Part shown: positions 5,990-64,000 of the stretch, piece after piece
Numbering within the stretch: the first letter of the stretch is position 1
Layout of the letters: each line of letters opens with the position of its first letter
Origin: a phage
Sequence record: PZ445429.1
Length of the DNA stretch: 64,000 nucleotides
Strand: one strand, 5' to 3'
Notes under the pieces: generated by a model
What the model saw: the letters and a program-made list of their open reading frames with translations, nothing else
Databases searched by the model: none
What the model was told of the DNA's origin: nothing
Program-made: the position numbers and the translations under genes

Positions 5990-7135
5990 ATGACAACCTT
6001 ACTAAATCTGAACTGGAATCCTGATTCTGAAGAGCTATTTCTCGGAGATGCCCTGGGAGTAGCAGACTATGTTCGTGTTGCTCATCCAGAGCTAGAACGA
6101 CTCGCACTATTACAGAGGAGCCAGTTTTGGACTGAAACTGAAATCAGTCTAGAAAGTGACAAAAAGCAATGGCCTAATCTTCCAAGAGAAATACAAGAAA
6201 TCACTCTGCTGAACTTAGCTTGGCAGGTTCAAACAGATTCTTTCATTAGCCGTGCTCCTGAAGCAGCTATTATGCCGCTTGTAAGCCGTCCTGAATTGGA
6301 GGGTATGCTCAAGCAGTGGAGCTACTTCGAAGATCTGCACAGCCGTGCGTATAGTAATATTATTCGTAACGTTCTGACTGATCCAGCAGAATTTATTGAT
6401 TCTGTAACTAAAAACCAAGAAGCATTTGCACGTATCGCAGATTCTGTTGAACTGTTTGATGAATTGTATCTGTTAGGTCAGTATTTCCTTGCAGTACGTG
6501 ATCATCGTGGTGATAATACTTATCCAGAAACTGAGTTCCCTGAAGTTAAACGTGAAACTCAGGCTAAGCTGTTAGATGCTTACTTTGCAATCTACGGTCT
6601 GGAAGCAATGCAGTTCTACGCATCCTTTGCATGTACCTTTGCTCTAGCAGAGAACGATATTCTGCAAGGTATTGCTAAGAACCTGCAATTAATCGCTAAA
6701 GATGAAGCTCTACATACTCAAATGTCTAAAGCTATCATCCAGATTATGTTTCAGCAATTTGATAAAGATCTGGTAGATGAAGCATTAGCTAAAGCACCAA
6801 CACAACTCCTAAAAACTCTGAAAACTGAGATTGAATGGGGTCATTTTATCTTTAAAGGCCGTAGTCTGATTGGTTTGAACGCAGAACTGCTTGAAGAATA
6901 CCTTTACTTTGTAGGACGTAACGCATTTATGCACATTGGTGTAGAATGGCCAAGCCACTTACCTGTAATTACTAAGAACCCTATTCCGTGGATCATGAAC
7001 TGGTTGGATACTACATCTTTACAACCTGCTCCGCAAGAGATTCAGATTGGCGCAGCATATCGTGTAGGTCAAGTCACAGAAACATCTATGGATACTCTGA
7101 AAGATCTTGGCAACGAATTTGAGGGTATGTTCTAA
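5990..7135 (+). CDS. nrdB: ribonucleoside-diphosphate reductase beta subunit
   Basis: 381 aa, di-iron ligand pattern (ENDILQG...EALHTQ), conserved F/Y region. Confidence 0.9.
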   Translation: MTTLLNLNWNPDSEELFLGDALGVADYVRVAHPELERLALLQRSQFWTETEISLESDKKQWPNLPREIQEITLLNLAWQVQTDSFISRAPEAAIMPLVSRPELEGMLKQWSYFEDLHSRAYSNIIRNVLTDPAEFIDSVTKNQEAFARIADSVELFDELYLLGQYFLAVRDHRGDNTYPETEFPEVKRETQAKLLDAYFAIYGLEAMQFYASFACTFALAENDILQGIAKNLQLIAKDEALHTQMSKAIIQIMFQQFDKDLVDEALAKAPTQLLKTLKTEIEWGHFIFKGRSLIGLNAELLEEYLYFVGRNAFMHIGVEWPSHLPVITKNPIPWIMNWLDTTSLQPAPQEIQIGAAYRVGQVTETSMDTLKDLGNEFEGMF

Positions 7136-8519: not shown

Positions 8520-8873
8520 ATGTTAATTATACTATTATTTGTCATATTCTTTCTAAAACATTTTATGGCCGATTATCCACTCCAAACACCATATATGCTA
8601 AGAAAGACGCATAAAATAGGGTGGAAACTTCCATTATTAACCCATTCGCTAGTACATGCTGGATTAACATTTGCAATTCTAATCCTATTCACATCACCAG
8701 GAATGTCTATAGCTTTAGCTATTATGGAATTAATTCTACACTTTATTATAGATTATTGGAAAGCACAACGCTGTAAATACGCTATAAGCGATGCTAAGTT
8801 TTGGATAGCTTTAGGATTTGATCAGTTACTGCATTATCTGACATACGCCCTAATAATCTTGATTATAATCTAA
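8520..8873 (+). CDS. small membrane protein (117 aa)
   Basis: 3-4 hydrophobic helices; hairpin terminator at ~8880-8896. Confidence 0.5.
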   Translation: MLIILLFVIFFLKHFMADYPLQTPYMLRKTHKIGWKLPLLTHSLVHAGLTFAILILFTSPGMSIALAIMELILHFIIDYWKAQRCKYAISDAKFWIALGFDQLLHYLTYALIILIII

Positions 8874-8971: not shown

Positions 8972-9550
8972 ATGACAGCCATAGTAGCATTTAAATATAA
9001 AGATAAAGTATACTTAGCTGGTGATCGTATGGGTTCTAATGGCTATACGAAACTGCTGGTTAAAAATCCGAAAGTATTCAAAATCTCTGATGATTTGTAC
9101 TTCGGATACACTAGTTCCTTCTACATGGGACAATTACTAGAGCATAGCTTTACTGTACCACCACGTTTAGCAGATATTTCTGATGATAAATATTTATATA
9201 CGGAAATAGTACCTAAATTACGTGATATGTTTAACCAGAAAGATTTTGGCGAAAAGAAAAATGAAAAATATGCTGAACCTAATCTGGGACAATTTATTAT
9301 GCTCTACAAAGGAAGAATCTTTATTTTCCAATCTAATGCTTCTATTCTAGAAGTTGAATATGCCGGTGTAGGCTGTGGAGGAGAAGATGTACTTTCCAGT
9401 ATTCGTACAGGTTTAGCTATTGCGGATTGTCGAGCCACAGATTTAGATGTAGATGATATATTTGAAATCATTGATCTGGCTTTTACGCATTGTGCAGATT
9501 ATATGTGTGGTGTATCTTCTCAACATGATGTTTTAGTAATTGGAGAATAA
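8972..9550 (+). CDS. Ntn-hydrolase, HslV/proteasome-beta-like (putative)
   Basis: N-terminal M-TAIVAFKYKDKVYLAGDRMGS parallels HslV TTIVSVRRNGHVVIAGDGQ (Thr1 nucleophile after Met removal); RBS GAAGGA. Confidence 0.4.
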   Translation: MTAIVAFKYKDKVYLAGDRMGSNGYTKLLVKNPKVFKISDDLYFGYTSSFYMGQLLEHSFTVPPRLADISDDKYLYTEIVPKLRDMFNQKDFGEKKNEKYAEPNLGQFIMLYKGRIFIFQSNASILEVEYAGVGCGGEDVLSSIRTGLAIADCRATDLDVDDIFEIIDLAFTHCADYMCGVSSQHDVLVIGE

Positions 9551-11313: not shown

Positions 11314-11529
11314 ATGTTCTCTAAGAAACCACGTTCCGTTACTGAAATCGTTGCTTCCTTTACCACTATTACTGATGAACTTCAAGCTCGTATTGAAGCT
11401 GACCAGAAAACTGCTGCTGATATTCAGAAACAGCAGGAAGAACTCGCTCTGAAACTGGCTGAAACCAATAAGAGTGAAAAATCTGCTCAAACTATTAAGG
11501 AAAATATCCTTAAACTGCTGGGCAAGTAA
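11314..11529 (+). CDS. hypothetical coiled-coil protein (71 aa)
   Basis: ORF with RBS AAGGA, terminator 11538-11554. Confidence 0.5.
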   Translation: MFSKKPRSVTEIVASFTTITDELQARIEADQKTAADIQKQQEELALKLAETNKSEKSAQTIKENILKLLGK

Positions 11530-11813: not shown

Positions 11814-12515
11814 ATGAAATTCAAGCCCTTTGGTATGCTGGACATTGAATCTCTAGGTACTCCAGGAAATTGCGGTACTACTCATATTGCAATGCCTTCT
11901 TTCGCTTTTGTAGCGATGCACGGAATTGATAAAGATCCTGATCTGGTATTCGTTACTCTAGACGTTCAAGATCAGCTTAATGCGGGTGCTAAGGTAACTG
12001 CCTCTACTATTGCATTCTGGATGGATCAAGCTAAAAACAGTCCATCTGCGCTCCATATTATGGAGGCTCTAAATGGTCGTAATCCTAAACTGATTGCCTT
12101 CCGTGATGGTAAGCATCACTGCACTAATGACGTAGGCTCTAATTATGCTGCCTTCTCTATGGCTCAGAACATTATGGAATTGTCTCTAGGAGATAATGCT
12201 CTGTATTACGGCAATGGCCCAGAGTTTGATATGACAATCTACTCTGCAAATACGTTCCATGCCGGAACCCATGAAGAAATAGTTCCGTGGAAATTCTGGA
12301 ACTTAGGTAACGTTCGATCTTTCCGTAATCAGTGGATGCAAGCTGGTTATAGCTATAAAGATCTAGAAGCCGAAGGTGCTAGCTGGGCAAAAGCTAAAAT
12401 GGAAAAGATGGACACCATTCGTTATGGAATCTATCCTGTGAAGCATGATCCAGCATTCGATGCTTTAGTTGAAAGTTATTGTGTAGCCGTCATGATCGAA
12501 AAAATCAAAATTTGA
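11814..12515 (+). CDS. hypothetical protein (233 aa)
   Basis: ORF with RBS AAGGA; no motif recognised. Confidence 0.55.
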   Translation: MKFKPFGMLDIESLGTPGNCGTTHIAMPSFAFVAMHGIDKDPDLVFVTLDVQDQLNAGAKVTASTIAFWMDQAKNSPSALHIMEALNGRNPKLIAFRDGKHHCTNDVGSNYAAFSMAQNIMELSLGDNALYYGNGPEFDMTIYSANTFHAGTHEEIVPWKFWNLGNVRSFRNQWMQAGYSYKDLEAEGASWAKAKMEKMDTIRYGIYPVKHDPAFDALVESYCVAVMIEKIKI

Positions 12516-49146: not shown

Positions 49147-49505
49147 AACTCTATGAAATAACATAGAATAAAGAGATCCACCCGGATACGGATGGTGGAT
49201 GGGAAACTTCTATTTCCCCCGTAGCTCGTCGGAGGGCTAGGGAAATCTTCAGAAGTTTTGTACCATCTCACGCAATTCGTATCCCAGGGGTGGAACATCT
49301 CTCACAATCCTTGAGGATCTTATACTTAAATTAAAGTTAAAACTTTTGACCACATAATTCACATTCAAGATGATACACTTGTTGCCGCCGCTCTTCCTAG
49401 GATGGCACAACACTTTCTAGTAGACTCCTAAGTTTCTAGGAAAACCCTGTCGTATTTGCCCATGTTATAGGGCAGTTTCTCCTGTTCCTAGAAACTCCAG
49501 CAATA

Positions 49506-49577
49506 GGCGGTTTAATACAGGGCGGTTTAATACAGGGCGGTTTAATACAGGGCGGTTATGGGGAGGGCGGTTATTTC
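49506..49577. repeat. 15-bp tandem direct repeat GGGCGGTTTAATACA x3 plus degenerate copies
   Basis: three exact head-to-tail copies followed by GGGCGGTTATG and GGGAGGGCGGTTAT. Confidence 0.8.
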
Positions 49578-49615
49578 TAGACAACATTTTTCCAAAACAC
49601 ATTTCTGGATTTTAC

Positions 49616-50217
49616 TGTCGGATTTGCACACTATGTTTCTAGAAATTTATGGTCGGATTTGCACATTGATAGGAGTCTCCAAAGTTTTTAGGAACACTGA
49701 AAATAGCAGCATTATTTCGGGCCGAAGGCCCGTATTTGCCTGAGTTTTTAGAGCCACAGGAATTTTCACTTGTCAAGCGATTTTGCCCCATTTTGCTAAT
49801 AAAATTTCGCTTTATCTCCACTAATCTCAATTCTAGCCAAAACATCCCACATTATCCCCAAAAACGCAGCAAACCGGTGCTGAAGCACCACCACAGCTGC
49901 ACCCTCCATAGTTCCTCCAAAAAACCTCGTCGGATTCGCACTTCTCCCCAAACTCACACAATCATACACCCTCTCATCGAAGTCACAAAAATCTTGTCGG
50001 TTTTGCACACCTTAACACTTGTCGTATTTGCACATATTCTAGTAAATCCAGCTGGATTGCATCGCAGTTGTGGATTGCTGGAGTTTTTAGGAAAATTCAT
50101 TGTCGGATTCGCACATATAAAAAATATTTCCCATCGGATTTGCACACTACCAAAAATTGTCGGATTCGCACATGCACACTGGCACGTAATCCGTGGGGGC
50201 AAATGTCGGATTTGCAC
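49616..50217. repeat. iteron array: at least 9 dispersed copies of TGTCGGATT(T/C)GCACA
   Basis: copies near 49616, 49651, 49926, 49994, 50019, 50101, 50132, 50158, 50203, mostly same orientation, irregular spacing. Confidence 0.75.
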
Positions 50218-50259
50218 AAAAGCGCAGGGCAAAAATGAAAATGCCCTGCCTGCCGAAAT

Positions 50260-50440
50260 GCGAATGATAATGAGATTGATTAGCATTTGAGAAGTTGAAT
50301 GCGAATGAGAATGATTCGCGTTTAGAAAGAGGAATGAGAATGGTTATCATTTAGAAAGCGGAATGAGAACAGTTATCATTTATAGAGTTGAATGCGAATG
50401 AGTCGCATAATGAGAATGATTCGCGTTTAGAAATGGAAGT
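50260..50440. repeat. GAATGAGAATG-type direct repeat family
   Basis: TTGAATGCGAATGAG...AATGATTCGCGTTTAGAAA twice and GGAATGAGAA(T/C)(G/A)GTTATCATTTA twice. Confidence 0.7.
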
Positions 50441-50460
50441 GAGAAACACTGTTATTTAAG

Positions 50461-50543
50461 TTATCAACAGGTTTATTAACAGCACGATTTGACTTGACAA
50501 AATCCTAGCGATTTTGAGGCGTTATCAACAGACTTATTAACAG
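50461..50543. promoter_or_regulatory. cluster of four DnaA-box-like 9-mers
   Basis: TTATCAACA x2 and TTATTAACA x2 (1-2 mismatches to TTATCCACA). Confidence 0.4.
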
Positions 50544-50550
50544 GTTATTC

Positions 50551-50570
50551 TACTGTATAAATATACAGTA
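50551..50570. promoter_or_regulatory. LexA (SOS) box, near-consensus
   Basis: TACTGTATAAATATACAGTA (consensus TACTGTATATATATACAGTA, 1 mismatch). Confidence 0.55.
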
Positions 50571-50599
50571 TTCCTATACAGTGAATAATTCTAATATAG

Positions 50600-50630
50600 C
50601 TCTAAAACGCTCTGTAACGCATCCTAACGC
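50600..50630. repeat. 31-bp direct-repeat motif TCTAAAACGCTCTGTAACGCAT(C/T)CTAA(C/G)CGC, copy 1
   Basis: second copy at 54886-54916, both preceded by TTATTAACAGG. Confidence 0.6.
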
Positions 50631-50715
50631 GTTTATTTTTGGAGGAGGTATTTTAATAAGGGGAAATTTGTTTGCAGGCAGAAAAGGCGGGGCCGATAGT
50701 TGCGCCCCGTTATTA

Positions 50716-50955
50716 TTAGTCTGCTATGTATTCCTTCTCGTAGTCGTCAAAGATCTGGACGGTTTCGGCTGGCGTATATCCGTATGAATCAAAATGCGTA
50801 CATGTTGAAACTGAATTGATCCACGCCCCTAGCGCCGCCGTACTAGCTCCGCTTTTCTGCATTTCTAAAAATTGCGCATATTGCGCATCAGTTAAATGAT
50901 GCTGCATAATATCGGTTTCTTTACGTTCTACATATCGTAAAATTCTTACAGCCAT
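50716..50955 (-). CDS. pre-early cassette protein (79 aa)
   Basis: minus-strand ORF with RBS AGGAG; last gene of IR-bracketed cassette. Confidence 0.45.
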   Translation of the reverse strand: MAVRILRYVERKETDIMQHHLTDAQYAQFLEMQKSGASTAALGAWINSVSTCTHFDSYGYTPAETVQIFDDYEKEYIAD

Positions 50956-51078
50956 GCCATTGCTCCTAGAATGAGAATGATTATCAATATCATTGTAAAG
51001 CCATTACCAAATCGTAAACGCTGGGAATGTTTCCCAGCGGTATTATTAGATTTATGGCTTTGTGTTTTTCGCCACCAG

Positions 51079-51279
51079 CTATTCACGGTAAACGCTCCAA
51101 CCGTCTAGCTTCCATTCCTCCCCCTTGCGAATATTGAAAAACCAATCATTAAAATTGTAACCATCTTCCGACATGATCACGCCGTTTTCTTTCATGTACA
51201 AAAATTCATCGCTAGTAAAATATTGATTACTAACTTTGAAACCTTGTTTCATTTTTTCTAACGCTTCATCTTTAGTCAT
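51079..51279 (-). CDS. pre-early cassette protein (66 aa)
   Basis: minus-strand ORF, coupled to upstream gene. Confidence 0.45.
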   Translation of the reverse strand: MTKDEALEKMKQGFKVSNQYFTSDEFLYMKENGVIMSEDGYNFNDWFFNIRKGEEWKLDGWSVYRE

Positions 51280-51620
51280 TGCGCCACCTTTCGAAACGCT
51301 GTTTCGATACTTTCAGCGGTTGATTGAATATATGCGCCTTTCATAATCAGGCGCTCTGTACATACTTTGCGGAAAATGTCAATAAATTCATTTTCATTTT
51401 CTGCTACTAATGGCTCACCCATAACCTGTACATCACATGCGCCAAAAGTAAGAAACTGGAAGGCAAGCTCGCGAGCAACAACGGCATTAATCTTATAATG
51501 TGCTTTGCCTTCATAGATATTAACCACGCCTTTATAAACTGGTGAAAGCTGATTTAAATAGCTTGCTAATAATGCCGGACGGCAATTAGTAACAAAACGA
51601 TTACCCTCGTATATAACCAT
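51276..51620 (-). CDS. pre-early cassette protein (114 aa)
   Basis: minus-strand ORF with RBS. Confidence 0.5.
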   Translation of the reverse strand: MVIYEGNRFVTNCRPALLASYLNQLSPVYKGVVNIYEGKAHYKINAVVARELAFQFLTFGACDVQVMGEPLVAENENEFIDIFRKVCTERLIMKGAYIQSTAESIETAFRKVAQ

Positions 51621-51729
51621 TTGTCAAGCTCCTAAAGCTGGGAAAATATCAGGTACATTTTTAAAACAAATGCAGCGAATGAGCAAACAACGCCAACGGT
51701 AGCAAACGCTAGAGCAATATATAAGGATC

Positions 51730-51948
51730 TCATAATACCCCCCGAAAAGCAGCGTAAAAGGTGGCAAAGTGTTTAACCGTTTCGGCTACCAAATTTCCGC
51801 GCTTGTCAAATTTCTTTTCAGTAACACGAAACGCGTTTTTGTTGCGTGCTACATATTCGATTTTACAATCTGGACGCTCAAACGTGTTAACATCCACCAG
51901 CTTAAAACCTTTAGAACGGGCAAGGGAAACATTCTTTAACATTTGCAT
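51730..51948 (-). CDS. pre-early cassette protein (~72 aa)
   Basis: start set at ATG after RBS AGGAG (track ORF 51730-52035 overlaps neighbour). Confidence 0.4.
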   Translation of the reverse strand: MQMLKNVSLARSKGFKLVDVNTFERPDCKIEYVARNKNAFRVTEKKFDKRGNLVAETVKHFATFYAAFRGVL

Positions 51949-51995
51949 GACTCCTAGTAAGGGAATGAGGGGCGAAAGTAACGCCCCGTTATTAT

Positions 51996-52226
51996 TTACA
52001 TTAAAACAATTTTCGCCGCTTGCTTTTTGGTGCAATGTTCTGATTTCAACGTGTCCAGCAAAAATCCGGCGGTTTGCTGGTCAATCTTATCATTATCATA
52101 AAGCGCCTGAATGGTAACATAAGTTTTACCAATCCCAAATTCAGAAACCATCTGATCAATAATCCAGCGATTAGACACCCAACCTTTACCAGTGAAAAGA
52201 GAGTCAGAAGAAGAGAAAGCAACCAT
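51996..52226 (-). CDS. pre-early cassette protein (76 aa)
   Basis: minus-strand ORF with RBS GGAGG. Confidence 0.45.
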   Translation of the reverse strand: MVAFSSSDSLFTGKGWVSNRWIIDQMVSEFGIGKTYVTIQALYDNDKIDQQTAGFLLDTLKSEHCTKKQAAKIVLM

Positions 52227-52333
52227 TTTAACGCCTCCTAGAAATCAGGGAAAATTTTCAATCCACCGTTTCGGTGTAAAGGCATTATAACAAAAAAGGC
52301 CGCCGATTAAGGCGACCTTTACAAAACTTTACA

Positions 52334-52828
52334 TTAGACTATTTCTAATGCTTCCACGCCGAAACAGCGTTTTAGTTCTTTCTGTAAAACGGCATATTCA
52401 CCCCAACGGGAATTATCAGGAATATAAACAAGCTGTTTTAATCGATTTGCATATAATAACGCCTTGTTACCAACTATTTCCGCGCCACCGTGTTTAATAA
52501 TTAGTTTCATAACGGTATTAATAGGATCGCCGCCATTTACATAAGTACCGGACTTACTCAATTGATAATGATAAAGACTCGCATATACATTATCATTTTC
52601 AATCCATTCCCCTGTTTCTTCATTTTCTTCCCCATCGCTACCGAAACGAGAAGCATTATCATATGCGTGTTCGTTTGCGAAAGCGTCCAGATCACAGCCA
52701 GCGGGAACAAAATGTTCTTCCGTCCAGCCCTCCCCACAATAGCCAGTATGACAATCAACTAAAACGATCATATCGTGTTTAGCTTCATTCACACTTTCTA
52801 GCGAAAAGCCATATTTTTCTTCTGACAT
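52334..52828 (-). CDS. pre-early cassette acidic protein (164 aa)
   Basis: minus-strand ORF with RBS GGAGACTAATTATG. Confidence 0.5.
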   Translation of the reverse strand: MSEEKYGFSLESVNEAKHDMIVLVDCHTGYCGEGWTEEHFVPAGCDLDAFANEHAYDNASRFGSDGEENEETGEWIENDNVYASLYHYQLSKSGTYVNGGDPINTVMKLIIKHGGAEIVGNKALLYANRLKQLVYIPDNSRWGEYAVLQKELKRCFGVEALEIV

Positions 52829-52841
52829 AATTAGTCTCCTA

Positions 52842-53150
52842 TTAATTAGTAGGGAAATAAAGAGAATTTGCTACACCGTAAAATCCTTTATTCAAGAAAA
52901 TTACGTCATCACGGACTATTTCATCCATTCCATAATCCAGCAAAGTTTCATCTACAAAAATACATAGCCAGCCATAACCACGATCAAAGAAAGCATGATA
53001 ATTATTCGCGCTTTCTACATGTTCCCATAAAAAGGGACGCCCTTGCTTTTCCCATATAGGAATATTGCTTTGATCGTCCGAATAATTAACATGTGGGCTA
53101 TTCGGCATTTTTTCGGCTAATTGCGCTAACATGATTTGATTTAGTTGCAT
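52842..53150 (-). CDS. pre-early cassette protein (102 aa)
   Basis: minus-strand ORF with RBS AGGAGACTAG. Confidence 0.5.
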   Translation of the reverse strand: MQLNQIMLAQLAEKMPNSPHVNYSDDQSNIPIWEKQGRPFLWEHVESANNYHAFFDRGYGWLCIFVDETLLDYGMDEIVRDDVIFLNKGFYGVANSLYFPTN

Positions 53151-53188
53151 AATAACTAGTCTCCTAACAATTAACAGGGAAATAGTAA

Positions 53189-53208
53189 AGCGGGGAATAA
53201 TCCCCGCT
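53189..53208. terminator. palindrome AGCGGGGAATAATCCCCGCT (family of three) downstream of minus-strand gene
   Basis: perfect GC-rich inverted repeat after stop of 53217-54212. Confidence 0.5.
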
Positions 53209-53216
53209 AGTAATTA

Positions 53217-54212
53217 TTACTCTGTTTCGGCGCTTTGAGTAAAGGTAGAAATGTCAATGCCTTTTACCATTTCATCGATCATTTCCGCAATGTTGAAACT
53301 CTGTACCATTTCCAACATTGCCGCTTCCATTGCCGCGCCTGCTACCGCTTTAGCTTTCGCATTAGTCGGGGCGTACTGGTCAACCGCTACGCTTAACAGG
53401 TTAGCGATCACTACGCGACCGATCGGCGTATCGATATAACCTTTAATCATAAACGGCGCTTTTTTCGCCGCTACTTTTGTGATTTGAATCAGTGCAATTT
53501 TACCCGCTTCCAATTTAGCAGCGTTTACAACGGCGGATTTATTAGCGGCAACGATAGAAGATACTTTAGACATAATATTTCCTTTATTTTCAGTAGTTTG
53601 CGCATTTGCGCTTGAAGTTTGAGATTGTACAGCCTGTTTTGTTACATTGTCAAGCGGTAAAAGTGTAAATCCAGCGTTTGCAACGTTTGATTCATTCCCA
53701 TACTCTAAATAATCGTTAGGGATCAACATGTTACCGCTAGCGCGTTCAAAACACAATACGCCAGTTGTTTCGATTGCGTCACTATCAGCACCTTTATAAC
53801 TGGATGATAATTCACGCCAGATACTAGATAGTAAATCTTCTACATCGCTGGAATTAATACCATTTACGCGAGTAGCGAAAACCATTTCTTTTTCTTGTAC
53901 ATTGTAACCACGGGCAATATAGCTTTTTTCGTCGTGACCTACAATGATAAAATCAATATCGCTTCCCCGCTGATTTCGCATGATGTGATAGTCACGGTTG
54001 TAAAGCACTAGAACGCGGGTAGGGTCTAGTAATTGTGTGAAATCACTTAAACAATAATGAGTATCATTATTATCTAAAATTTCATCGTGAATCTTTTCGA
54101 TAATAGTAGCCGTATGTTGTACGCTTGCCGCACTACTACCATCTAGCAGGTTGCGCAAACTACCCTTAATAATAGTGGCGTTTGCTGGTACTGCAATTCT
54201 TACAGTAGACAT
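53217..54212 (-). CDS. pre-early cassette protein (331 aa), first gene of minus-strand operon
   Basis: RBS GAGGGGGACAAAGAAATG; palindromic terminator downstream at 53189-53208. Confidence 0.55.
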   Translation of the reverse strand: MSTVRIAVPANATIIKGSLRNLLDGSSAASVQHTATIIEKIHDEILDNNDTHYCLSDFTQLLDPTRVLVLYNRDYHIMRNQRGSDIDFIIVGHDEKSYIARGYNVQEKEMVFATRVNGINSSDVEDLLSSIWRELSSSYKGADSDAIETTGVLCFERASGNMLIPNDYLEYGNESNVANAGFTLLPLDNVTKQAVQSQTSSANAQTTENKGNIMSKVSSIVAANKSAVVNAAKLEAGKIALIQITKVAAKKAPFMIKGYIDTPIGRVVIANLLSVAVDQYAPTNAKAKAVAGAAMEAAMLEMVQSFNIAEMIDEMVKGIDISTFTQSAETE

Positions 54213-54460
54213 TTCTTTGTCCCCCTCGTTAATCGGTGAGTGAATGATATAGATAATTGTTCGCTAGGGGCAAGAAAAAAGAAAAGGTTTTTTATTCCTT
54301 GCCTACTGCCTGTTTTTATGATAGCCGCGCGTTTTCTATTTCTAGCTCTCTGTATGCGTACACAAGGCTTTATTATAATAAGGGTAGCAGCGAGAAAACC
54401 GTTTAGAATGCGTTCTAGGCCGCTTAAATTTGATTGCGGTTGTTACTGCTACCATTCTAC

Positions 54461-54480
54461 CCTGTATATTTATACAGTAG
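54461..54480. promoter_or_regulatory. LexA (SOS) box
   Basis: CCTGTATATTTATACAGTAG, CTGT-N8-ACAG core; ~250 bp upstream of minus-strand operon start 54212. Confidence 0.5.
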
Positions 54481-54487
54481 GATAACC

Positions 54488-54569
54488 TGTGAATAAGTCT
54501 GTGGATAAGTCGCCAAAACGTCGCCTATTGCGTCAAGTTATTTTGTGCTGTGGATAACTTTGTGAATAA
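54488..54569. promoter_or_regulatory. cluster of four DnaA-box-like 9-mers
   Basis: TGTGGATAA x2 (perfect complement of TTATCCACA) and TGTGAATAA x2. Confidence 0.5.
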
Positions 54570-54885
54570 CCTAAATGATAGTGGTTCTCACTTAGCCGAT
54601 AGTTTCTTATAGTTATTATTTCTCTTTAATTTATAAGTATATAATATAATATGAAATAGTTAGTTGGCTAATAGGTTTTTAGAGTATTAATAGTCTGCTA
54701 ACTGTTTCGGCTGTTACAATCCACCAGCGTGATTATTATCCTAGCGATTGTTAGTATGCTAACCAATCAATGCACGTCTAAACTTATTTGTCAATGAAAA
54801 ATAACAGCAGAAAATACTTTTTTGAAAAATCAAGTGGATAACTCATTAAATTTCATTTTTGCTTTTTGTATAAGTTATTAACAGG

Positions 54886-54916
54886 GTCTAAAACGCTCTG
54901 TAACGCATTCTAAGCG
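54886..54916. repeat. 31-bp direct-repeat motif, copy 2
   Basis: see copy 1. Confidence 0.6.
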
Positions 54917-56974: not shown

Positions 56975-58639
56975 ATGAATATTTCCGCAGAAAAACAAGC
57001 TCAAATTCTGAAAATGGCCGCAGATTTTAACTTCTACGGTAAGCGTTTACGCGCTACTAAATTGGAAGTTTGCGACGATATTTCAAAAGCTGTTTATGAT
57101 ACGCCGAAACATTCAACCGCAATTTGTGACTGGCTGGAAGCAAATAAGCCAGCGAAACCGAAAGCGGCAAAAGCTGAAAAGGCGATTAAAAATGATGATC
57201 GCCCCGAAGCGGCGGGAATTGTTTCTAGTACCGTTGAACAATGGGAAGTTAAATCCGGTCGCCGTTTTATTCTAACGTCGATTCAAAATAATACTTTCCC
57301 GCATAAAAACTTTTTAGCAAGTCTGGAAAAATTCGCTGAATATTGCGGCGCTGAATTGCTGATTAGTAAATTCATTTATAATAAAAATGGATTCCAGAAC
57401 GGGGAAGGGGCAAACGGTATTAAATACGATCCCGCATTTGATAAATATGTTTGTGATAAAAACGTATTTTTAAATAACCGCCGCTTTGCTTTCATGGCTG
57501 AAATTAACGTTTTACCAACGGCAGATTATCCGCTTTCAGGATTCGCAGAAACCGCCACGGCTTTAAATATCGAAGGTCTGGCAATTGGTCACGCAAAAAT
57601 TACCGCTGAAAGTGTTCCCGCGCTTAAAGGTGAAGTAGTGCGCCGTATGTATTCAACCGGAACGGCTACGCTTAAAAACTACATTCAGCAGAAAGCAGGT
57701 CAAAAAGCTGAGGCTTTACATAATTACGGCGCTTTGCTGGTGGAGTTCGACGACGACGGAGAATTTTATTGCCGCCAGCTTGAAACAATGGATGAAAGCG
57801 GAATGTTCTATGATTTGAATGTTTGCGCTATGCCTACCGGATGTTTTGAAACGTCCGATCATGTTCTAGGCTTGCAATATGGCGATATTCACGCCGAAAA
57901 ACTAGATGATGATTGCGCCGTCGCTTCATGGGCTAGTGAAAACAGCTTGCTTGATATTCTTAAACCGAAATATCAATTTATTCATGATGTGCATGATTTT
58001 ACATCCCGCAATCACCATAACCGCGCAAGTGGTGTATTCCTTGCTAAACAATACGCCGCCGGACGTGATAAAGTTATTGATGATCTTATCGATACGGGTC
58101 GCGTATTAGAGTCTATGGAGCGTGATTTCTCTCAAACAATCATTGTGGAATCTAACCATGATTTAGCTCTTTCACGCTGGCTTGATGATCGTAACGCTAA
58201 CATTAAAGATGATCCCGCAAACGCGGAATTGTATCACCGTCTAAACGCTGCGATTTACGCCGCTATTGCTGAAAAGGATGATACCTTTAACGTGCTAGAT
58301 TACGCCTTGCGGAACGTCGCAGGTTGTGAATTTAACGCTATTTTCCTGACTACTGACCAATCATTTAAAATCGCTGGCATTGAATGCGGCGTACATGGTC
58401 ACAATGGCATTAACGGCAGTCGGGGCAATCCTAAGCAGTTTAAAAAGTTGGGACGCCTTAACACTGGTCACACTCACACGGCTAGCATTTACGGCGGCGT
58501 TTATACCGCTGGCGTTGCTGGTAGTCTCGATATGGGTTACAACGTTGGCGCGTCAAGCTGGACGCAAACGCATTTAATTACATATGCAAACGGTCAACGT
58601 ACCTTGATTGATTTCAAAAATGGCAAATTCTTTGCCTAA
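56975..58639 (+). CDS. A1: A1-like pre-early protein with calcineurin-type metallophosphoesterase/nuclease motifs
   Basis: 554 aa (T5 A1 is ~556 aa); GDIHAEKLD, ESNHDL, GHNG, GHTHTA motifs; followed by A2-like and dmp-like genes. Confidence 0.55.
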   Translation: MNISAEKQAQILKMAADFNFYGKRLRATKLEVCDDISKAVYDTPKHSTAICDWLEANKPAKPKAAKAEKAIKNDDRPEAAGIVSSTVEQWEVKSGRRFILTSIQNNTFPHKNFLASLEKFAEYCGAELLISKFIYNKNGFQNGEGANGIKYDPAFDKYVCDKNVFLNNRRFAFMAEINVLPTADYPLSGFAETATALNIEGLAIGHAKITAESVPALKGEVVRRMYSTGTATLKNYIQQKAGQKAEALHNYGALLVEFDDDGEFYCRQLETMDESGMFYDLNVCAMPTGCFETSDHVLGLQYGDIHAEKLDDDCAVASWASENSLLDILKPKYQFIHDVHDFTSRNHHNRASGVFLAKQYAAGRDKVIDDLIDTGRVLESMERDFSQTIIVESNHDLALSRWLDDRNANIKDDPANAELYHRLNAAIYAAIAEKDDTFNVLDYALRNVAGCEFNAIFLTTDQSFKIAGIECGVHGHNGINGSRGNPKQFKKLGRLNTGHTHTASIYGGVYTAGVAGSLDMGYNVGASSWTQTHLITYANGQRTLIDFKNGKFFA

Positions 58640-59186: not shown

Positions 59187-59921
59187 ATGAATCAAGTTAA
59201 AATGAATATTACCCATAATTTCCCGCATATTTCCCGCGTCATGATTTGGGATCTGGACGGCACAATCATTAATTCTTTCCATCGTGTAGCGCCTTGCTTT
59301 GATGATAACGGGAATTTAAATTTAAATAAGTATTCCCGCGAAGCCTGTAAACATGAATTAATTATGCAGGATTCTTTATTGCCGTTGGTTGAATATATGC
59401 GCCAATGTATGAGTGACGCAAATACATTAAACATTATTTGTACCGCTCGCCTTATGTCTAAAAGCGATTATTTTTATTTACGCAAACAAGGCCTGCGAGG
59501 GCGCGGAAATAGTAATATCCGCGTATTTTCCCGCGATACACTGCATAAATACTTTGAAGCTGATAAGGTTAGCGAAATATACCACAGCAAAGACGCTGTA
59601 TACAAAAGCTATTACTTTGAACTATTTAAACAGCTATATCCGAACGCTGATTTTACGATGATTGATGATCATAAAGGCGTATTATCGGCGGCGGCAAGTG
59701 CTGGGTTCAAAACACTGGACGCCCAAGCCGTTAACGATATCCTATCAATCGGCGTAGCATTGATCGGTGAAACCTTTATTGATGAATCGTTAGATGATGA
59801 TAATGATTATCAATTCCTAGCCGAACGTTTAAAAATGTGTTGGGAAGGTATGACCGAGGAAGAACGCGCGGAATATAGTACCACACCGCAACAATTCATT
59901 GATAAATTAAAAGTTGCATAA
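59187..59921 (+). CDS. dmp: HAD-family 5'-deoxyribonucleotidase (dmp-like)
   Basis: 244 aa; HAD motif I MIWDLDGTIINS; later DD motif. Confidence 0.55.
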   Translation: MNQVKMNITHNFPHISRVMIWDLDGTIINSFHRVAPCFDDNGNLNLNKYSREACKHELIMQDSLLPLVEYMRQCMSDANTLNIICTARLMSKSDYFYLRKQGLRGRGNSNIRVFSRDTLHKYFEADKVSEIYHSKDAVYKSYYFELFKQLYPNADFTMIDDHKGVLSAAASAGFKTLDAQAVNDILSIGVALIGETFIDESLDDDNDYQFLAERLKMCWEGMTEEERAEYSTTPQQFIDKLKVA

Positions 59922-59938
59922 CAATTAAAAATAAAATA

Positions 59939-59976
59939 GTTTCATCCTGTAATTAAAAAATGGTTACAGGATGAAA
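59939..59976. terminator. bidirectional hairpin between dmp-like (+) and HNH (-)
   Basis: TTTCATCCTGTAA-TTAAAAAATGG-TTACAGGATGAAA. Confidence 0.6.
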
Positions 59977-60094
59977 CAGTTAGCATGGTAATAGTAACAC
60001 AGGGGGATTATTAGACTACTAACTATCCCCAGTCCCACTGAGCACATCTGCATGTGTAATCTTATGAAATTTCAAGATTTTCAAATTAGCGCTA

Positions 60095-60568
60095 TTAACC
60101 GTGGTTTGTGAACTCACCACATACTTTCTCACGTGCTTCCCTTATCGCACTTTCAGCTTCCTCAAGACTCTCGAAATAGGCCGAGATAAAATATTTGCCT
60201 TGGTGTCTACCGCGTGCTCTCCACTTCTTACGAGTGTTATCCCAGTATACTCCCTTAACTCCCGAGATATTGTTCTTAGATAGACGCTGATTCGCTAAGT
60301 TCTGCTCATGTGATGCTTTACGAAGATTATTCTTTCTATTATCTAGTCCCTCACAGTTTTTATGGTCTATGAGAGATTCTCCGGGATCTTCTCCGTAGAT
60401 GCACCACCAAGCTAGGCGATGCACTCTAAACTCTCCGAACTGTGGGTGACGATATATGAGATAACCTTCACTTTCCTTAGTATATCCTATAATAGGCAGG
60501 AATCGCCCCGTATCTGGATCGTATGAAAAACTACCAGCTATTTCATCAGGGATTTTCTTAAATATCAT
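60095..60568 (-). CDS. HNH homing endonuclease
   Basis: HRLAWWCIYGEDPGESLIDHKNCEGLDNRKNNLR ... GVKGVYW, paralogous to the 15403 HNH. Confidence 0.7.
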   Translation of the reverse strand: MIFKKIPDEIAGSFSYDPDTGRFLPIIGYTKESEGYLIYRHPQFGEFRVHRLAWWCIYGEDPGESLIDHKNCEGLDNRKNNLRKASHEQNLANQRLSKNNISGVKGVYWDNTRKKWRARGRHQGKYFISAYFESLEEAESAIREAREKVCGEFTNHG

Positions 60569-60810
60569 GAACTTCTCCTATCTACTGGCTTATCTCCCGA
60601 TTCTGACATACGAAACCTCCTCCGCGACGCCCGAGATCCATCAGACCATTCTCGCTCAAACTCCGCACGTTTCTCCGCAAACTTCCGCTCTCTTTCCGAA
60701 AGCTCTCGCGATACTCCCGCAATATATTCACGATGCTTATTAATCGCCCCGAGTGTTCCGAAGATTCCCGCAAGTACCCCGATAATGAAGATAGCTACAA
60801 AACTAAACAT
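60565..60810 (-). CDS. small membrane protein (81 aa)
   Basis: N-terminal TM helix, basic tail. Confidence 0.4.
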   Translation of the reverse strand: MFSFVAIFIIGVLAGIFGTLGAINKHREYIAGVSRELSERERKFAEKRAEFEREWSDGSRASRRRFRMSESGDKPVDRRSS

Positions 60811-60913
60811 TACTTGTCTCCACGCAGCTTACGTTCGATACGAGCTAAGTGGTTATCTAAGATGCACTGCCCTATAATTACCACAACTAGTAAAGCAATA
60901 ATTACTACTTCCA

Positions 60914-61099
60914 TTATAACCACCCCGCCATAGCTGCTAACCAAAAGAGTACAAAGATAAAGAATAACACAGTCCCGAATCCGAAACTATTTATCCAACT
61001 TTCGTACACTTCCCCGCGTCTGTTCTTTCTTCTGTTGTCGTCTGACATCTCTTTGCTTCTCCTGTAGTCTTGGTATTTGGAATACCATAGCAATTGCAT
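60914..61099 (-). CDS. small membrane protein (61 aa)
   Basis: C-terminal TM helix. Confidence 0.35.
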   Translation of the reverse strand: MQLLWYSKYQDYRRSKEMSDDNRRKNRRGEVYESWINSFGFGTVLFFIFVLFWLAAMAGWL

Positions 61100-61376
61100 G
61101 AACCATTATGACTGTCCCGATAAGATCCATTACTTCGTCGAAGCCGGATTCTTCTAGTAAGAAGGATGTTCCATCACGTCTTCTACTGTATCTTCTATGA
61201 CATCTTGAATGATTTCATCAATTGCATCATGTATTGCTTTTTATTCCTGGGATTTATTTCAAAGTTAACAGGTTCCTGAAAGGACTTTTCTTCATCTTGC
61301 ATTGTGTTTGCTACCTGTACCTCATCCCAGAAATAAAAATTTTTGTTTACTTCGAGATCTTTTTACTTTATACTAA

Positions 61377-61643
61377 TTACAAGTGACCAGATTGTTCTAG
61401 TTTAAATTTGCAATCACCATATTTGAGATCAAACTGTGACAAATCCCACCACCCAAACTTAGTGCGTAACTGAGTTTTAGGGAATCGGTAGCCCACAGTA
61501 CGTGCTTCTCTAATATCTAAAGCGTAGTGTTCTTCACCAACATGTCCATAAGACTTCACGTATGCCTTACAGAATGGCTCGGGAGCTGGTACACAACCAG
61601 TCAACACTACTGCTGCAACTACGATAGCTAGTAACTTTTTCAT
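61377..61643 (-). CDS. llp: Llp-like lipoprotein (receptor-blocking lytic-conversion lipoprotein, putative)
   Basis: 88 aa, signal peptide with lipobox LTGC; divergent from adjacent receptor-binding protein gene as for T5 llp/oad. Confidence 0.5.
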   Translation of the reverse strand: MKKLLAIVVAAVVLTGCVPAPEPFCKAYVKSYGHVGEEHYALDIREARTVGYRFPKTQLRTKFGWWDLSQFDLKYGDCKFKLEQSGHL

Positions 61644-61726
61644 AATCGTTCCTCTGTTTAATTTATAAATATATTATAGCAAAATAGAGGGATTTAAGCA
61701 AATACATTTTTAAAGAAGGAGATTGT

Positions 61727-63508
61727 ATGAGTTTTTTCGCAGGAAAATTTAGTGATGGTAAAACTGTATTATCTCTAAACGCTGCTAATGGTGGTGATAC
61801 TGGTGAGCACTATTCTCCAAATACTAATAGTATCTTCCACTCCGATATGCCTTTCGTCCTGGTTGATGGGACTTATGAAGCAGCCCTAGGTAATGCAGGT
61901 AATGGATACTTTGTTACTCAGATGCCTTGGGATATTATAAATATTAAATCCAATGATCCAGGTAGAGTTATATTAACTGCTATTGAGATAAACGGTACTC
62001 ATAGAGGATTCCTCAATGGTACTCAATCTCAGGTTGGCCAGTTCTTATCATTTTTTGAAGACCCACCACGTGCTGGTGCTGAATTATCTGTAACATCTGC
62101 TTTTGCGATCGGGGATAGTTTAGCTCATGGTACTTATATCTATAATGGTGGTCTTGGTCATGAGGAATCTATTGCTAGGCAAGGTTCTGGAGGCAGTTTA
62201 CTACAGTCCTCTGGTTTCCAGATCTTTAGACCTGGTGGTGTTCCTGCTGGTGAAGCCATTGCCAGAGCCTGGAGTCTTATGGGTTTTCCAACTGGTGTCT
62301 CTACTGTTCCTTTAAATGGTGGTAACGCTGATTATTGGGATCCTAACTGGCAGGCGCCTATTGGTTCTGCTGGTAGAGGCCATGATTGGTTTTATGTTTG
62401 TAGTTCTAATATTCGTGGCTTCGCAGGTAAAAAAGGCGTACTACCAGATAACGTAAACATTAACTACCAATCCCCCTCCTTTCCTACTAAAGTATACGTT
62501 TGCAGGGGTTCTACAACTAATATGGCTGCGCAAGCCACTAGAAAGGTATATGTACAGGACTGGTACAACGTTACGCCAACTAAGGTTATTTGGTATGTAC
62601 TAAATCTGCGCTATTCTAATGGTAGTATGGGAGTTTCTGGTAATCCATTTACCGGTTCAGATATCTTAATATCTCCATCTAACTTTACTATTAAAGGTGT
62701 TAGCCTACCAAATACAGGCTATAAATTTATTAACCAGAATGCTTTCGGAAACTTAGGCTATCGCCCTGATATGGAGTATGTTGGTAATAACGCTGCGTAT
62801 ACCGGAGTTTTTGGTGATAATACTGCACGATGTGAATTTATCGGCTCTAGTAATGGCGGATTGTGGTCTCCTGTTAACTATGGGGGTGCAGCTTCTCAAA
62901 TTAGCTTATATAAATTTGGTGTAGGTAAACAATGGTATGTAGATACTAATACCAACTCCATTGGTAATGAACATGGACCTGTATGGAGTCCTAGTACTGT
63001 ACCCCTCAGGTTATTCCCAGGCAACGTTGCAAGTACTTATGTAGGGGATGATATAACTCCATCCTACCCTGGTGCTGGTGACTTCTACACACCTTTGGCC
63101 ACAGTTTGGTTGGGATTACCAAATGCTCACTCTACTGTTATATTAACTACTGAAGTTATTATGGGTAATCTTAATACTGCTGGAATGCCCGTGCGTACTT
63201 ATGGTGGTAGTGCTTGGCAGGTACAAGGTAGACGTCAACAAAGTTATACAGCTGGTGATGGTGTATTCCATCAGATTCTTACTCTGCCACCTGGCTATCT
63301 AGTACCATATCACAGTACAACTTCCTATAGCTATACCCAAACGTGGGCTAGTAGGCCTGATGAGTTTGCTTTCCGTAGGAACGGATATATTTATACTATT
63401 AAAAACCTTGGTAATGGCAACGTTGAATTGGGTGTTATCATTCACGCTGCGGAAGCGGCGGCTGTTTTCTTGCCAAGACTACGTGTAACAGTTCAACGCC
63501 TAACCTAA
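61727..63508 (+). CDS. receptor-binding tail protein (pb5/Oad-like, putative)
   Basis: 593 aa Gly/Asn/Ser/Thr/Tyr-rich beta-type protein adjacent to llp-like gene; RBS AAGGAG. Confidence 0.45.
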
Positions 63509-63518
63509 AGGAGGATAT

Positions 63519-64000
63519 ATGGCAAATGATGTATTAGTTCCCGATCTCATGTCTCCTGAGGGCATGGATGTTATTGAAGCCTATTTACAGTGCAGTAGTG
63601 ATGTTCCTGCCGCCGCTCGTAGTCTTGGAATGTCCGAGATTGCATTTCGTGATATAATGAATCGTGGGGAAGTTAAAAACTATCTCAACGATATCTTTAT
63701 GGAAAGTGGCTTCCGTAATCGTGACCGCTTATTCGGAGTTCTTGATGAAGTTATCAAGCGCAAGTTGGAAGAACTCGAAGAAACTGGCATGGGTTCTGAC
63801 CAGGATATCATGGATATTCTCTGGAAGGCGCACAAGATGAAAATGGAAGAAATGAAAATGATGGTAGAACTGGAGAAAGTGAAGGCAGCAGCCCGTACTC
63901 CAGCTAACCAGACTAACATTCAGAATAATATTATTGCTGGAAGTGGTGACGAAAACTATATGAATCTTATTACCGCTCTAGCAGGAGGAGGTAAGAGATA
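63519..64000 (+). CDS. hypothetical protein with N-terminal helix-turn-helix (possible terminase small subunit); 5' part only
   Basis: RBS AAGGAGG then ATG 63519; frame open to window end. Confidence 0.3.

Follow-up and report, generated by a model that had tools for sequence, protein, structure and literature searches.

The DNA analyzed here (the window) is a 64,000-nucleotide (nt) stretch, sequence record PZ445429.1, of a T5-like Salmonella phage, presented in reverse reading direction. Between 49.5 and 54.6 kb, two inverted-repeat arms enclose a variable, dispensable pre-early host-takeover cassette. The features of the region are, from left to right:

49500..50436, no strand: non-coding injection-stop-signal repeat region, adjoining the left arm (repeat search; T5 annotation)
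50437..50568, no strand: left arm, on the injection-stop-signal side; homologue of T5 IRD'-spacer-IRC' (T5 9332-9462; repeat search and alignment)
50461..50542, plus: two pairs of variant DnaA boxes, each with 3 bp between its boxes: TTATCAACA at 50461, TTATTAACA at 50473, TTATCAACA at 50522 and TTATTAACA at 50534 (regex scan)
50551..50570, no strand: predicted LexA (SOS) box of the left arm, TACTGTATAAATATACAGTA, inner end; 25.8 bits; equals T5 "palindrome D"
50601..50627, plus: T5 "IRB"-type repeat TCTAAAACGCTCTGTAACGCATCCTAA (repeat search)
50677..50709, minus: terminator-like hairpin, CGGGGC, 10-nt loop, GCCCCG, then a T-rich run (direct reading)
50716-50955, minus: 79 aa, last cassette gene (ORF list)
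50946-51086, minus: 46 aa (ORF list; tblastn conservation)
51079-51279, minus: 66 aa (ORF list)
51276-51620, minus: 114 aa (ORF list; tblastn match to T5)
51730-51942, minus: 70 aa, by homology a T5.015-type Ung-dependent nicking endonuclease (phrog_4227; tblastn match to T5)
51996-52226, minus: 76 aa (ORF list; tblastn match to T5)
52334-52828, minus: 164 aa (ORF list)
52842-53150, minus: 102 aa (ORF list)
53217..54212, minus: 331 aa, first cassette gene, DUF7566 (PF24450, E 1e-136; phrog_4263)
54244..54273, minus: predicted sigma-70 cassette promoter, TTGCCC, 18 nt, TATCAT (promoter scan), ~190 bp inside the right LexA box
54460..54479, no strand: predicted LexA (SOS) box of the right arm, CCCTGTATATTTATACAGTA, inner end; 23.0 bits
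54462..54593, no strand: right arm, on the A2 side, within the divergent control region; homologue of T5 IRC-spacer-IRD (T5 6022-6152)
54488..54569, minus: two pairs of consensus DnaA boxes TTATNCACA, at 54488, 54500, 54549 and 54561 (regex scan; direct reading)

The strand and span of the cassette (54212 down to 50716) are those given by the first-pass annotation, which had counted eight genes where we count nine open reading frames (ORFs). Eight match PHROG families, and the ninth, encoding 46 aa, is conserved in relatives. The 331-, 76-, 70- and 114-aa proteins match T5 by tblastn, so that the cassette holds homologues of T5 genes 011, 013, 015 and 016. The resemblance of the 331-aa protein to T5 gene 011 lies in its C terminus; gene 011 expressed alone is toxic, according to a published report, and homologues of the 331-aa gene stand first in the cassette of Klebsiella, Pectobacterium and Proteus phages. 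The predicted cassette promoter matches the putative promoter T5P4 of T5 in position. At the other end, the terminator-like hairpin starts 7 nt past the stop codon of the last gene; it is absent from the output of the terminator scanner because its 10-nt loop is too long for the scanner's rule. The atypical GC content previously attributed to this segment was not found: GC is 0.395-0.396 at 50-54 kb and 0.35-0.47 (mostly 0.38-0.42) elsewhere. Only the GC skew changes sign in the cassette, as expected from its minus-strand genes.

The arms form the strongest inverted repeat found by repeat search in the 49.5- to 55.5-kb interval, at 132 nt each, 77% complementary and 3893 nt apart. The repeat had been placed at 50461-50570 and 54461-54570, which is correct as to its existence, and as to an inner 47 bp with three differing positions in the alignment, but falls about 24 nt short at each outer end. 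Against T5 9381-9548, annotated as iss, the left arm shows 89.9% identity, and a four-way alignment of the window arms with the T5 arms has a mean column identity of 79%. GenBank record AY587007 annotates both T5 repeats, IRC-spacer-IRD and IRD'-spacer-IRC', as well as palindrome D. The arms have A2 and A1 on their right and the DRD and DRC repeats on their left, and the window has what characterizes the first-step-transfer repeat of T5: an inverted pair of ~131 bp, homology to T5, DnaA pairs and an enclosed cassette. Homology and synteny with T5 and 527 other records thus identify the arms as the window phage's copies of the T5 first-step-transfer inverted repeat. The first-pass annotation had left a choice between a lineage-specific insertion and a conserved element of the pre-early region that had not been explained functionally; since the arms occur in 527 phage records, align with the T5 arms and occupy the same position throughout the family, the former falls away and the latter stands.

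The non-coding region beside the left arm contains nine copies of TGTCGGATTTGCACA (T5 "DRD"), AATGAGAATGATT-type repeats and a 15-nt tandem repeat, and its counterpart in phage S114 is labelled "similar to DNA injection stop signal." Further IRB-type copies were found at 54400-54425 (inverted) and 54887-54916, and the same motif accompanies the boxes of T5, KEY, Riker, DU_PP_V, Stubb and Vibrio D414. The T5-like 131-bp repeat, with its eight DnaA boxes and its location at the injection stop signal, was described by Davison in a bioRxiv preprint (10.1101/866236). A 2026 paper calls the T5 transfer-stop mechanism poorly understood, and the stop-signal features that it lists are repeats, palindromes and DnaA boxes only. 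A part for the arms in stopping DNA transfer is hypothetical, even for T5.

The motif quality of the palindromes at the inner ends is plain. CTGT-N8-ACAG occurs at two sites only in the 64 kb, 50553-50568 and 54462-54477. With a LexA weight matrix compiled for this analysis from 30 E. coli sites, which themselves span 12.2-24.4 bits, the left box (25.8) exceeds every site of the matrix and the next-best site in the window reaches 13.9 bits, in agreement with the earlier call of a near-consensus LexA box at the inner end of each arm. The sites thus have the sequence features of LexA operators, namely CTGT-N8-ACAG, an AT-rich center and scores at the level of E. coli sites. The left box is identical to T5 9330-9349 and agrees at 19 of 20 positions with the textbook LexA consensus. 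Across the phage boxes, the CTGT and ACAG ends are near-invariant and the center is variable, with CTGG and CCAG as the tolerated variants; genuine E. coli SOS boxes tolerate the same variants. Among 38 unique T5-like arm segments, the perfect CTGT-N8-ACAG is kept in 32, while the two adjoining DnaA boxes are at consensus in only 17 and 26. Palindrome D of T5 and its partner therefore appear to be near-consensus SOS boxes, apparently unreported as far as the searchable literature goes; we found no paper there naming LexA in connection with T5. Against a LexA reading, the exact 16-mer CTGTATAAATATACAG is preserved even at positions where LexA would accept substitutions, which may point to a further constraint or to some other reader.

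All four DnaA boxes of the right (A2-side) arm are at consensus, and all four of the left (iss-side) arm deviate by one or two mismatches. The first-pass annotation was right about four DnaA-box-like 9-mers per arm but had put them all at the outer end: in each arm, one pair directly adjoins the LexA box and the other lies near the outer end. Each arm can be read as a module of ~130 bp in which a predicted high-affinity LexA operator comes first, then two DnaA boxes separated by 3 bp and, beyond a spacer, another such DnaA-box pair. The same paired DnaA-box arrangement has been reported for T5-like phages (10.1101/866236). From these motifs, we infer that LexA and DnaA would bind the arms.

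The composite of LexA box and DnaA-box pair was present in 9/9 Demerecviridae pre-early regions examined. At a threshold of at least 16 bits, the pre-early regions of T5, Klebsiella Riker, Pectobacterium DU_PP_V, Enterobacter KKP_3711, Erwinia KEY, Proteus Stubb and Vibrio D414 each have 2-3 LexA-matrix sites, and that of Vibrio PG07 has one; shuffled pre-early regions average at most 0.13 sites and never have more than one. In PG07 (A1 identity 32.5%), TGTGGATAA-ctg-TGTGGATAA comes 8 nt after the box, the layout seen in T5, and DnaA boxes adjoin the LexA boxes in Proteus Stubb and Vibrio D414 as well. By these matches, the predicted LexA and DnaA box module is conserved across the family, reaching the Vibrio phages.

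LexA operators overlap or abut promoters, and here the modules depart from the pattern. In the promoter scan, no strong predicted promoter overlaps either LexA box: the nearest lie 190-900 bp off, the cassette promoter ~190 bp away and plus-strand promoters ~900 bp away, at 55379 and 55519. On this ground, a classical promoter-operator role for the modules would be denied, and with it the SOS control region, in the sense of a classical operator, that had been suggested for the segment. A transcriptional reading would have LexA and DnaA tune the divergent pre-early operons, or an unrecognized antisense promoter, according to SOS state, so that SOS-induced cells would express the host-takeover cassette differently. 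It draws on the operator-quality scores, on the A2-side box, which in the window, T5, KEY and Proteus Stubb falls within the divergent control region, and on a weak promoter-like site, TATACA-16-AATAAT (50562-50589), that overlaps the left box. There is also a precedent in E. coli uvrB, where LexA and DnaA sites are reported to control one promoter region jointly (PMC6015884). However, in the direction of cassette transcription the terminator comes before the left box, and the promoter-like hexamers beside the boxes are conserved neither between the arms nor between phages. We regard such operators as unlikely.

Another candidate is a phage protein that reads the palindrome, as the operator of a dimeric A2 or as an A1/A2 cleavage site, in which case the site would only look like an SOS box. 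Indeed, Davison counts PalD among candidate A1/A2 cleavage palindromes, A2 is described in the literature as a conserved, essential DNA-binding protein needed for transfer restart, and the center of the 16-mer is under tighter conservation than recognition by LexA alone would call for. Yet A2 is only ~41-43% identical in Proteus and Vibrio phages while the site is unchanged, which fits a near-invariant gammaproteobacterial reader better. The tolerated variants (CTGG, CCAG and a variable center) track the degeneracy of LexA, and a random 20-bp palindrome would score 25 bits with a probability of only ~1e-5. Moreover, the structure model of A2 consists of helices only, and a structural comparison gave no significant match (LexA came 34th, with E 6.5). 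A phage-encoded reader thus seems improbable.

The arms bracket a block of variable gene content, and the whole block is found in two orientations. By tblastn, the gene order 331-102-164-114 is mirrored on the opposite strand in Riker, DU_PP_V and IME260- and My1-like contigs, so that the cassette is mirror-inverted in two lineages, Sugarlandvirus and My1/DU_PP_V. The opposite cassette transcription of Type 2 and Type 3 appears to be this inversion, although the sources found do not describe it so. In the A1 tree, Type 1 and Type 3 group in 200/200 bootstraps and Type 2 and Type 3 in 0/200, a grouping that requires at least two inversion events. These comparisons establish cassette inversions within the family, as judged by gene order and phylogeny. 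Since each module is an inverted copy of the other, recombination between the two would flip the whole cassette, and probably did so at least twice in the family.

The first-pass proposal of an invertible cassette therefore holds on the evolutionary scale, in two lineages, but not as a switch. The two orientations are seen between genera only and are fixed within each lineage; a synthetic inverted junction had no contiguous match among 458 matching records of close relatives (0/458). Neither the nine cassette ORFs nor four neighbors in the A2/A1 operon (the 83-aa T5p007 homologue, A2, A1 and a 130-aa protein) have a recombinase domain. That the cassette actively inverts or moves, using the repeats as recombination sites, is accordingly very improbable, and active switching is largely refuted. 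A transposon or other mobile cassette, as had also been proposed, was rejected: the nine ORFs have no transposase domain, and the location is constant in all relatives. Another reading, in which the repeats survive as a structural relic or work as a cruciform or hairpin and the protein-box matches are coincidence, is scarcely credible: single-stranded arms do fold a little more stably than shuffles (z -2.3 to -2.6) and the palindrome by itself forms a hairpin of -4.6 kcal/mol, but this hairpin is weak, the arms are 3.9 kb apart, and the box matches are far above chance and persist in phages without the long inverted repeat.

With somewhat better than even confidence, we instead read the arms as cis-acting LexA/DnaA modules that bracket the cassette and serve as anchors or boundaries on the first-step-transfer DNA, without a classical operator role. 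The divergent control region beside the A2/A1 operon holds one module, and the other stands just before the injection stop signal. Both would offer host LexA and DnaA a landing pad on the first-step-transfer DNA, and could form nucleoprotein anchors or boundaries on the paused DNA, the complex being responsive to SOS state through LexA occupancy. Against such anchors, LexA is not, to our knowledge, known as a DNA anchor or as membrane-associated. Moreover, a T5 mutant that lacks the span from hegG to gene 017 is viable and forms small plaques (the text gives no exact deletion ends), and since this deletion spans the A2-side arm, at least that arm appears dispensable in the laboratory. Reading the arms as anchors would extend Davison's DnaA model of the injection stop, and a role for the modules in pausing or releasing DNA transfer is speculative. 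More tentatively still, and as a possibility that we would not press, the composite landing pad could make LexA an unrecognized component of the injection pause, with loss of LexA helping to time release or the pre-early programme. As A1 begins destroying host DNA, LexA would be cleaved, and this could time either event. If so, a strictly virulent phage would use the SOS repressor non-transcriptionally.

How T5 stops after 8% of its DNA has entered, and how entry restarts, has been a question since the 1960s. The repeat itself was already known, along with its DnaA boxes and its place beside the injection stop. What the present comparison adds is that the best-conserved element of the repeat, from Escherichia to Vibrio phages, is a top-grade predicted LexA operator fused to a DnaA-box pair. 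Its recognition points to a second concrete host factor and makes the stop question testable with standard tools. Repeated inversion may be one reason why a symmetric pair of modules persists around fast-changing host-takeover genes.

The closest known system is T5 itself, whose IRC-spacer-IRD and IRD'-spacer-IRC' are the same element: homologous, placed between the A2/A1 operon and the injection-stop repeats, with two DnaA pairs per arm and a variable cassette. The differences are that the sources found neither call the inner-end palindrome a LexA site nor describe the opposite cassette transcription of Type 2 and Type 3 phages as an inversion, and that in the window phage the DnaA boxes are all at consensus in the A2-side arm and all off consensus in the iss-side arm. 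The invertible segments of Mu, P1 and Salmonella Hin likewise have inverted repeats around a gene block in two orientations. Those systems, however, use short sites of ~26-34 bp and a dedicated serine recombinase and switch within a population, whereas the phage cassette has no recombinase and keeps one orientation per lineage. With the E. coli SOS boxes of tisAB, umuDC, sulA and recA, the phage sites share CTGT-N8-ACAG and CTGTAT half-sites, and they score as high as the best chromosomal boxes or higher. Unlike those boxes, they have no recognizable promoter overlap, belong to a strictly virulent phage and are paired with DnaA boxes, and their binding of LexA is predicted. E. coli uvrB also has LexA and DnaA sites in one short non-coding region, but there the sites overlap promoters and regulate a repair gene (PMC6015884), while the phage module is duplicated, inverted and promoterless. 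Closely spaced, phased DnaA boxes recall oriC and datA, a comparison also made by Davison, but according to the same source T5 replication origins map near the genome center (10.1101/866236), and the LexA box of the phage module has no counterpart at those loci. Finally, the LexA-controlled promoters of temperate phages such as GIL01 (PMC4551915) are lysis-lysogeny switches with operators on promoters, whereas T5-like phages are virulent and their sites lie off promoters; what the two would have in common is the use of the host SOS repressor by a phage genome.

The 49.4-55.6 kb segment matches 537 phage records by megablast, mostly T5-like phages of Salmonella, Escherichia and Klebsiella at 90-96% identity, and the matched part lies at approximately 4.6-10.6 kb in genomes deposited in the T5 orientation. 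The A1 protein encoded at 56975-58639 is 100% identical to A1 of Salmonella phage KKP 3953. Match position and A1 identity together indicate that the window is an Epseptimavirus-like genome, reversed relative to the T5 map. Positions 50-59 kb make up the pre-early region of first-step transfer (FST); its T5 counterpart is located within the terminal repeat. The features discussed here are as follows.

50437-50568, left arm of the inverted repeat (injection stop signal side), from the repeat search
50551-50570, LexA-like box, inner end of the left arm
50716-54212, minus strand, pre-early gene cassette
54460-54479, LexA-like box, inner end of the right arm
54462-54593, right arm of the inverted repeat (A2 side), from the repeat search
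59187-59921, 244-aa ORF at the dmp position of relatives
61727-63508, 593-aa ORF, among other minus- and plus-strand genes past the 244-aa ORF

Across 59187-64000, genes continue beyond the 244-aa ORF and no genome end is reached within the window; in the source assembly the terminal repeat seems to have been collapsed, or the sequence circularly permuted (compare Erwinia phage KEY). As a separate matter, near-identical T5-like sequences have been deposited as Campylobacter and Listeria phages, and T5-like proteins also appear under the names Brucella melitensis, Enterococcus faecalis and Citrobacter freundii; these labels probably reflect contamination or mislabelling.

The inverted repeat proposed in the first-pass annotation is the best repeat of the region, at 132 nt and 77% complementary. 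Both arms are present, but the limits first given were about 24 nt short at the outer ends; the observation that the inner 47 bp differ at 3 positions is correct by alignment. Four DnaA-type boxes per arm are arranged as two pairs; the right arm has only consensus boxes and the left arm only variant ones. In alignment, the window arms have 79% mean column identity with those of T5, whose annotation (GenBank AY587007) assigns 6022-6152 to inverted repeats C and D and 9332-9462 to D' and C'; "palindrome D" occupies 9330-9349, ahead of the injection stop signal repeats. Davison (bioRxiv 10.1101/866236) described the 131-bp inverted repeat as conserved in 25 T5-like phages, carrying eight boxes, DnaA or variant DnaA, grouped in pairs at 3-bp spacing, and enclosing a highly variable coding region, and hypothesized that membrane-bound DnaA grips both repeats, halting injection. 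A 2023 paper on BF23 and a 2026 PNAS paper echo this view, both stating that experiments are lacking. The repeat and its DnaA boxes were therefore known before, as was the repeat's lack of an explanation; the finding is real, and ordinary in the sense that this element is already documented for T5. The suggestion of a conserved pre-early feature without functional explanation was therefore the right one, and a lineage-specific insertion is rejected because the same element is found in T5 and its T5-like relatives. The mobile-cassette reading fails on the database matches and the domain searches of the cassette. Nor is the base composition atypical, as had been claimed: GC content is 0.395, no different from elsewhere in the window, and the change is confined to the skew.

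The arms fold only weakly, and a cruciform or hairpin signal was dropped as a candidate. No Rfam match to a non-coding RNA was found across 49-56.5 kb, even at E 0.1. The arm spacers contain a -35-like CTTGAC (50494-50499 and 54535-54540) that is invariant in 4/4 aligned arms from the window and T5, is without a matching -10 downstream, and is missing from the Proteus phage Stubb arm. Three to four copies of a 15-nt tandem repeat, GGCGGTTTAATACAG, lie at the outer margin of the injection-stop repeats (49506-49580); the T5 annotation examined has no name for this repeat.

The motif CTGT-N8-ACAG occurs at exactly two sites in the 64 kb, one per arm and always at its inner end. With a LexA weight matrix built from 30 Escherichia coli operators (Lewis 1994; Fernandez de Henestrosa 2000), the boxes score 25.8 and 23.0 bits, compared with 24.4 for the best E. 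coli site and 13.9 for the next best site in the window. The identical 16-mer is found at both T5 arms, where "palindrome D" reads TACTGTATAAATATACAGTA. This palindrome agrees at 19 of 20 positions with the textbook SOS consensus. The probability that a random 20-bp palindrome reaches at least 25 bits is approximately 1e-5.

For a wider view of conservation, IMG/VR was scanned with an anchor on the neighboring DnaA pair, leaving the LexA box itself free to vary. In every T5-like arm the box was found four bases past the anchor (3 nt before the 20-mer start), and perfect CTGT-N8-ACAG was kept in 32 of 38 unique T5-like arm segments; the two adjacent DnaA boxes match consensus in just 17 and 26 of the 38. 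Strong LexA-like boxes also occur in distant relatives.

LexA-like boxes in the comparison loci
Klebsiella phage Riker: two strong boxes
Erwinia phage KEY: two boxes, both perfect
Pectobacterium phage DU_PP_V: three strong boxes
Enterobacter phage KKP_3711: three strong boxes
Proteus phage Stubb: three strong boxes (A1 42% identical)
Vibrio phage D414: three strong boxes (A1 34% identical)
Vibrio phage PG07: one box (A1 32.5% identical)

Dinucleotide shuffles, run on the eight loci other than PG07, yielded between 0 and 0.13 sites scoring 16 bits or more in each locus, with a maximum of one. Across loci the motif hardly changes at its ends and varies at its centre, and the end changes tolerated in the phage boxes, CTGG and CCAG, are changes known from genuine SOS boxes. 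No long inverted repeats were found in the Proteus and Vibrio phages, though the boxes persist there. In PG07, 8 nt after the box, TGTGGATAA-ctg-TGTGGATAA reproduces the T5 layout, and in Stubb and D414 DnaA boxes adjoin the LexA-like boxes, though without the long inverted repeat. These layouts identify the conserved unit as a composite of LexA box and DnaA-box pair, which predates the long inverted repeat. At the sequence level, the LexA boxes of the first-pass annotation are strongly supported. "LexA" and "SOS" are absent from the Davison text (10.1101/866236), and we found no paper linking LexA with T5-like phages, though the older T5 literature could still contain one; this putative LexA element, conserved throughout the family, appears to be unreported.

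Other elements lie in these regions. Extra high-scoring LexA-like boxes occur outside the arms, within annotated cassette coding sequence, in the KKP_3711 locus (8826-8845, 22.8 bits) and the Stubb locus (7015-7034, 19.0 bits). In the D414 locus, two fits to the sigma-54 promoter pattern TTGGCACG-N4-TTGC (approximately 11336-11352 and 11971-11987) directly adjoin LexA-like boxes in the pre-early control region; none was seen in the arms of the window. A TAGAATGCG.TCTAGG.CG motif of the T5 "IRB" type is present at 50601-50627, 54400-54425 and 54887-54916, and near LexA-like boxes also in T5, KEY, Riker and even the Proteus and Vibrio phages Stubb and D414; this motif is a candidate for a third conserved element of the module that binds protein.

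The arms enclose an accessory pre-early gene cassette. Nine minus-strand ORFs occupy 50716-54212, and eight of the nine match PHROG families. The 331-aa product is a DUF7566 protein related to T5 gene 011, the 70-aa product is a homologue of T5.015, an Ung-dependent nicking endonuclease, and the 114-aa product is homologous to the T5 protein that AY587007 annotates as ORF016; the others include several small proteins without known function. A 66-aa protein (51079-51279, minus strand) has a weak match to the Tad2-like domain of Thoeris anti-defence (PF11195, 17.8 bits against a cut-off of 25) and might be an anti-defence sponge. In T5, genes 011, 013 and 015 are each toxic if expressed alone, and a deletion running from hegG to 017 still leaves a viable phage, which forms small plaques. 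Since that span, which is named by genes only, includes the A2-side arm, T5 can probably do without this arm under laboratory conditions.

When every locus is set with A2 on the plus strand, in the window, T5, KKP_3711, KEY and Stubb the DUF7566 gene is on the minus strand and adjoins the A2-side arm; in Riker, DU_PP_V and IME260-like and My1-like contigs it is on the plus strand and adjoins the iss-side (injection stop signal) arm, and the genes after it follow in mirrored order. The A1 neighbour-joining tree joins Type 1 with Type 3 in 200/200 bootstraps and never joins Types 2 and 3, a topology that, by parsimony on this single gene, requires at least two inversions. A synthetic flipped junction had no contiguous match among 458 records, and domain searches of the cassette ORFs revealed no recombinase. 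The inversion looks like rare recombination between the repeats, not a switch. The inner flanks share the same IRB-like motif, whose variants follow orientation unclearly (KEY resembles Riker on one side); they were therefore abandoned as a guide to the breakpoints, whose positions are narrowed down only to the stretches that separate the arms from the outermost genes.

What might the boxes do? One main rival reading is that the palindrome is recognized by phage A2, or by A1 and A2 together. Scans of A2 gave no Pfam or PDB sequence match, and its all-helical model (pLDDT 83) retrieved nothing below E 0.8 with Foldseek, results that do not count against this reading. The other main rival, that the boxes are sites of true transcriptional control, has to accommodate their placement: a promoter scan and reading by eye found no strong or conserved promoter overlapping the boxes, the cassette promoter is approximately 190 bp inside the right box, and the cassette terminator separates the left box from the cassette genes, all of which argues against a classical operator. 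A candidate sequence for the T5 promoter P_H207 matched none of the loci.

FST DNA enters the cell ahead of any phage protein synthesis, and LexA is an abundant host protein whose motif is common to Gammaproteobacteria. From this early entry, the top-quality sites and the abundance of LexA, we infer that host LexA and DnaA would occupy the modules on DNA entry. LexA could then, speculatively, help pause transfer, insulate the stop region from transcription, or report SOS state. The LexA reading gives a testable lead on an old question, the injection stop of T5-like phages. LexA/DnaA nucleoprotein complexes would form at both cassette ends, extending Davison's anchoring model, and such complexes would fit the second FST band, of roughly 5.8 kb, that Davison cites from Rhoades (10.1101/866236).
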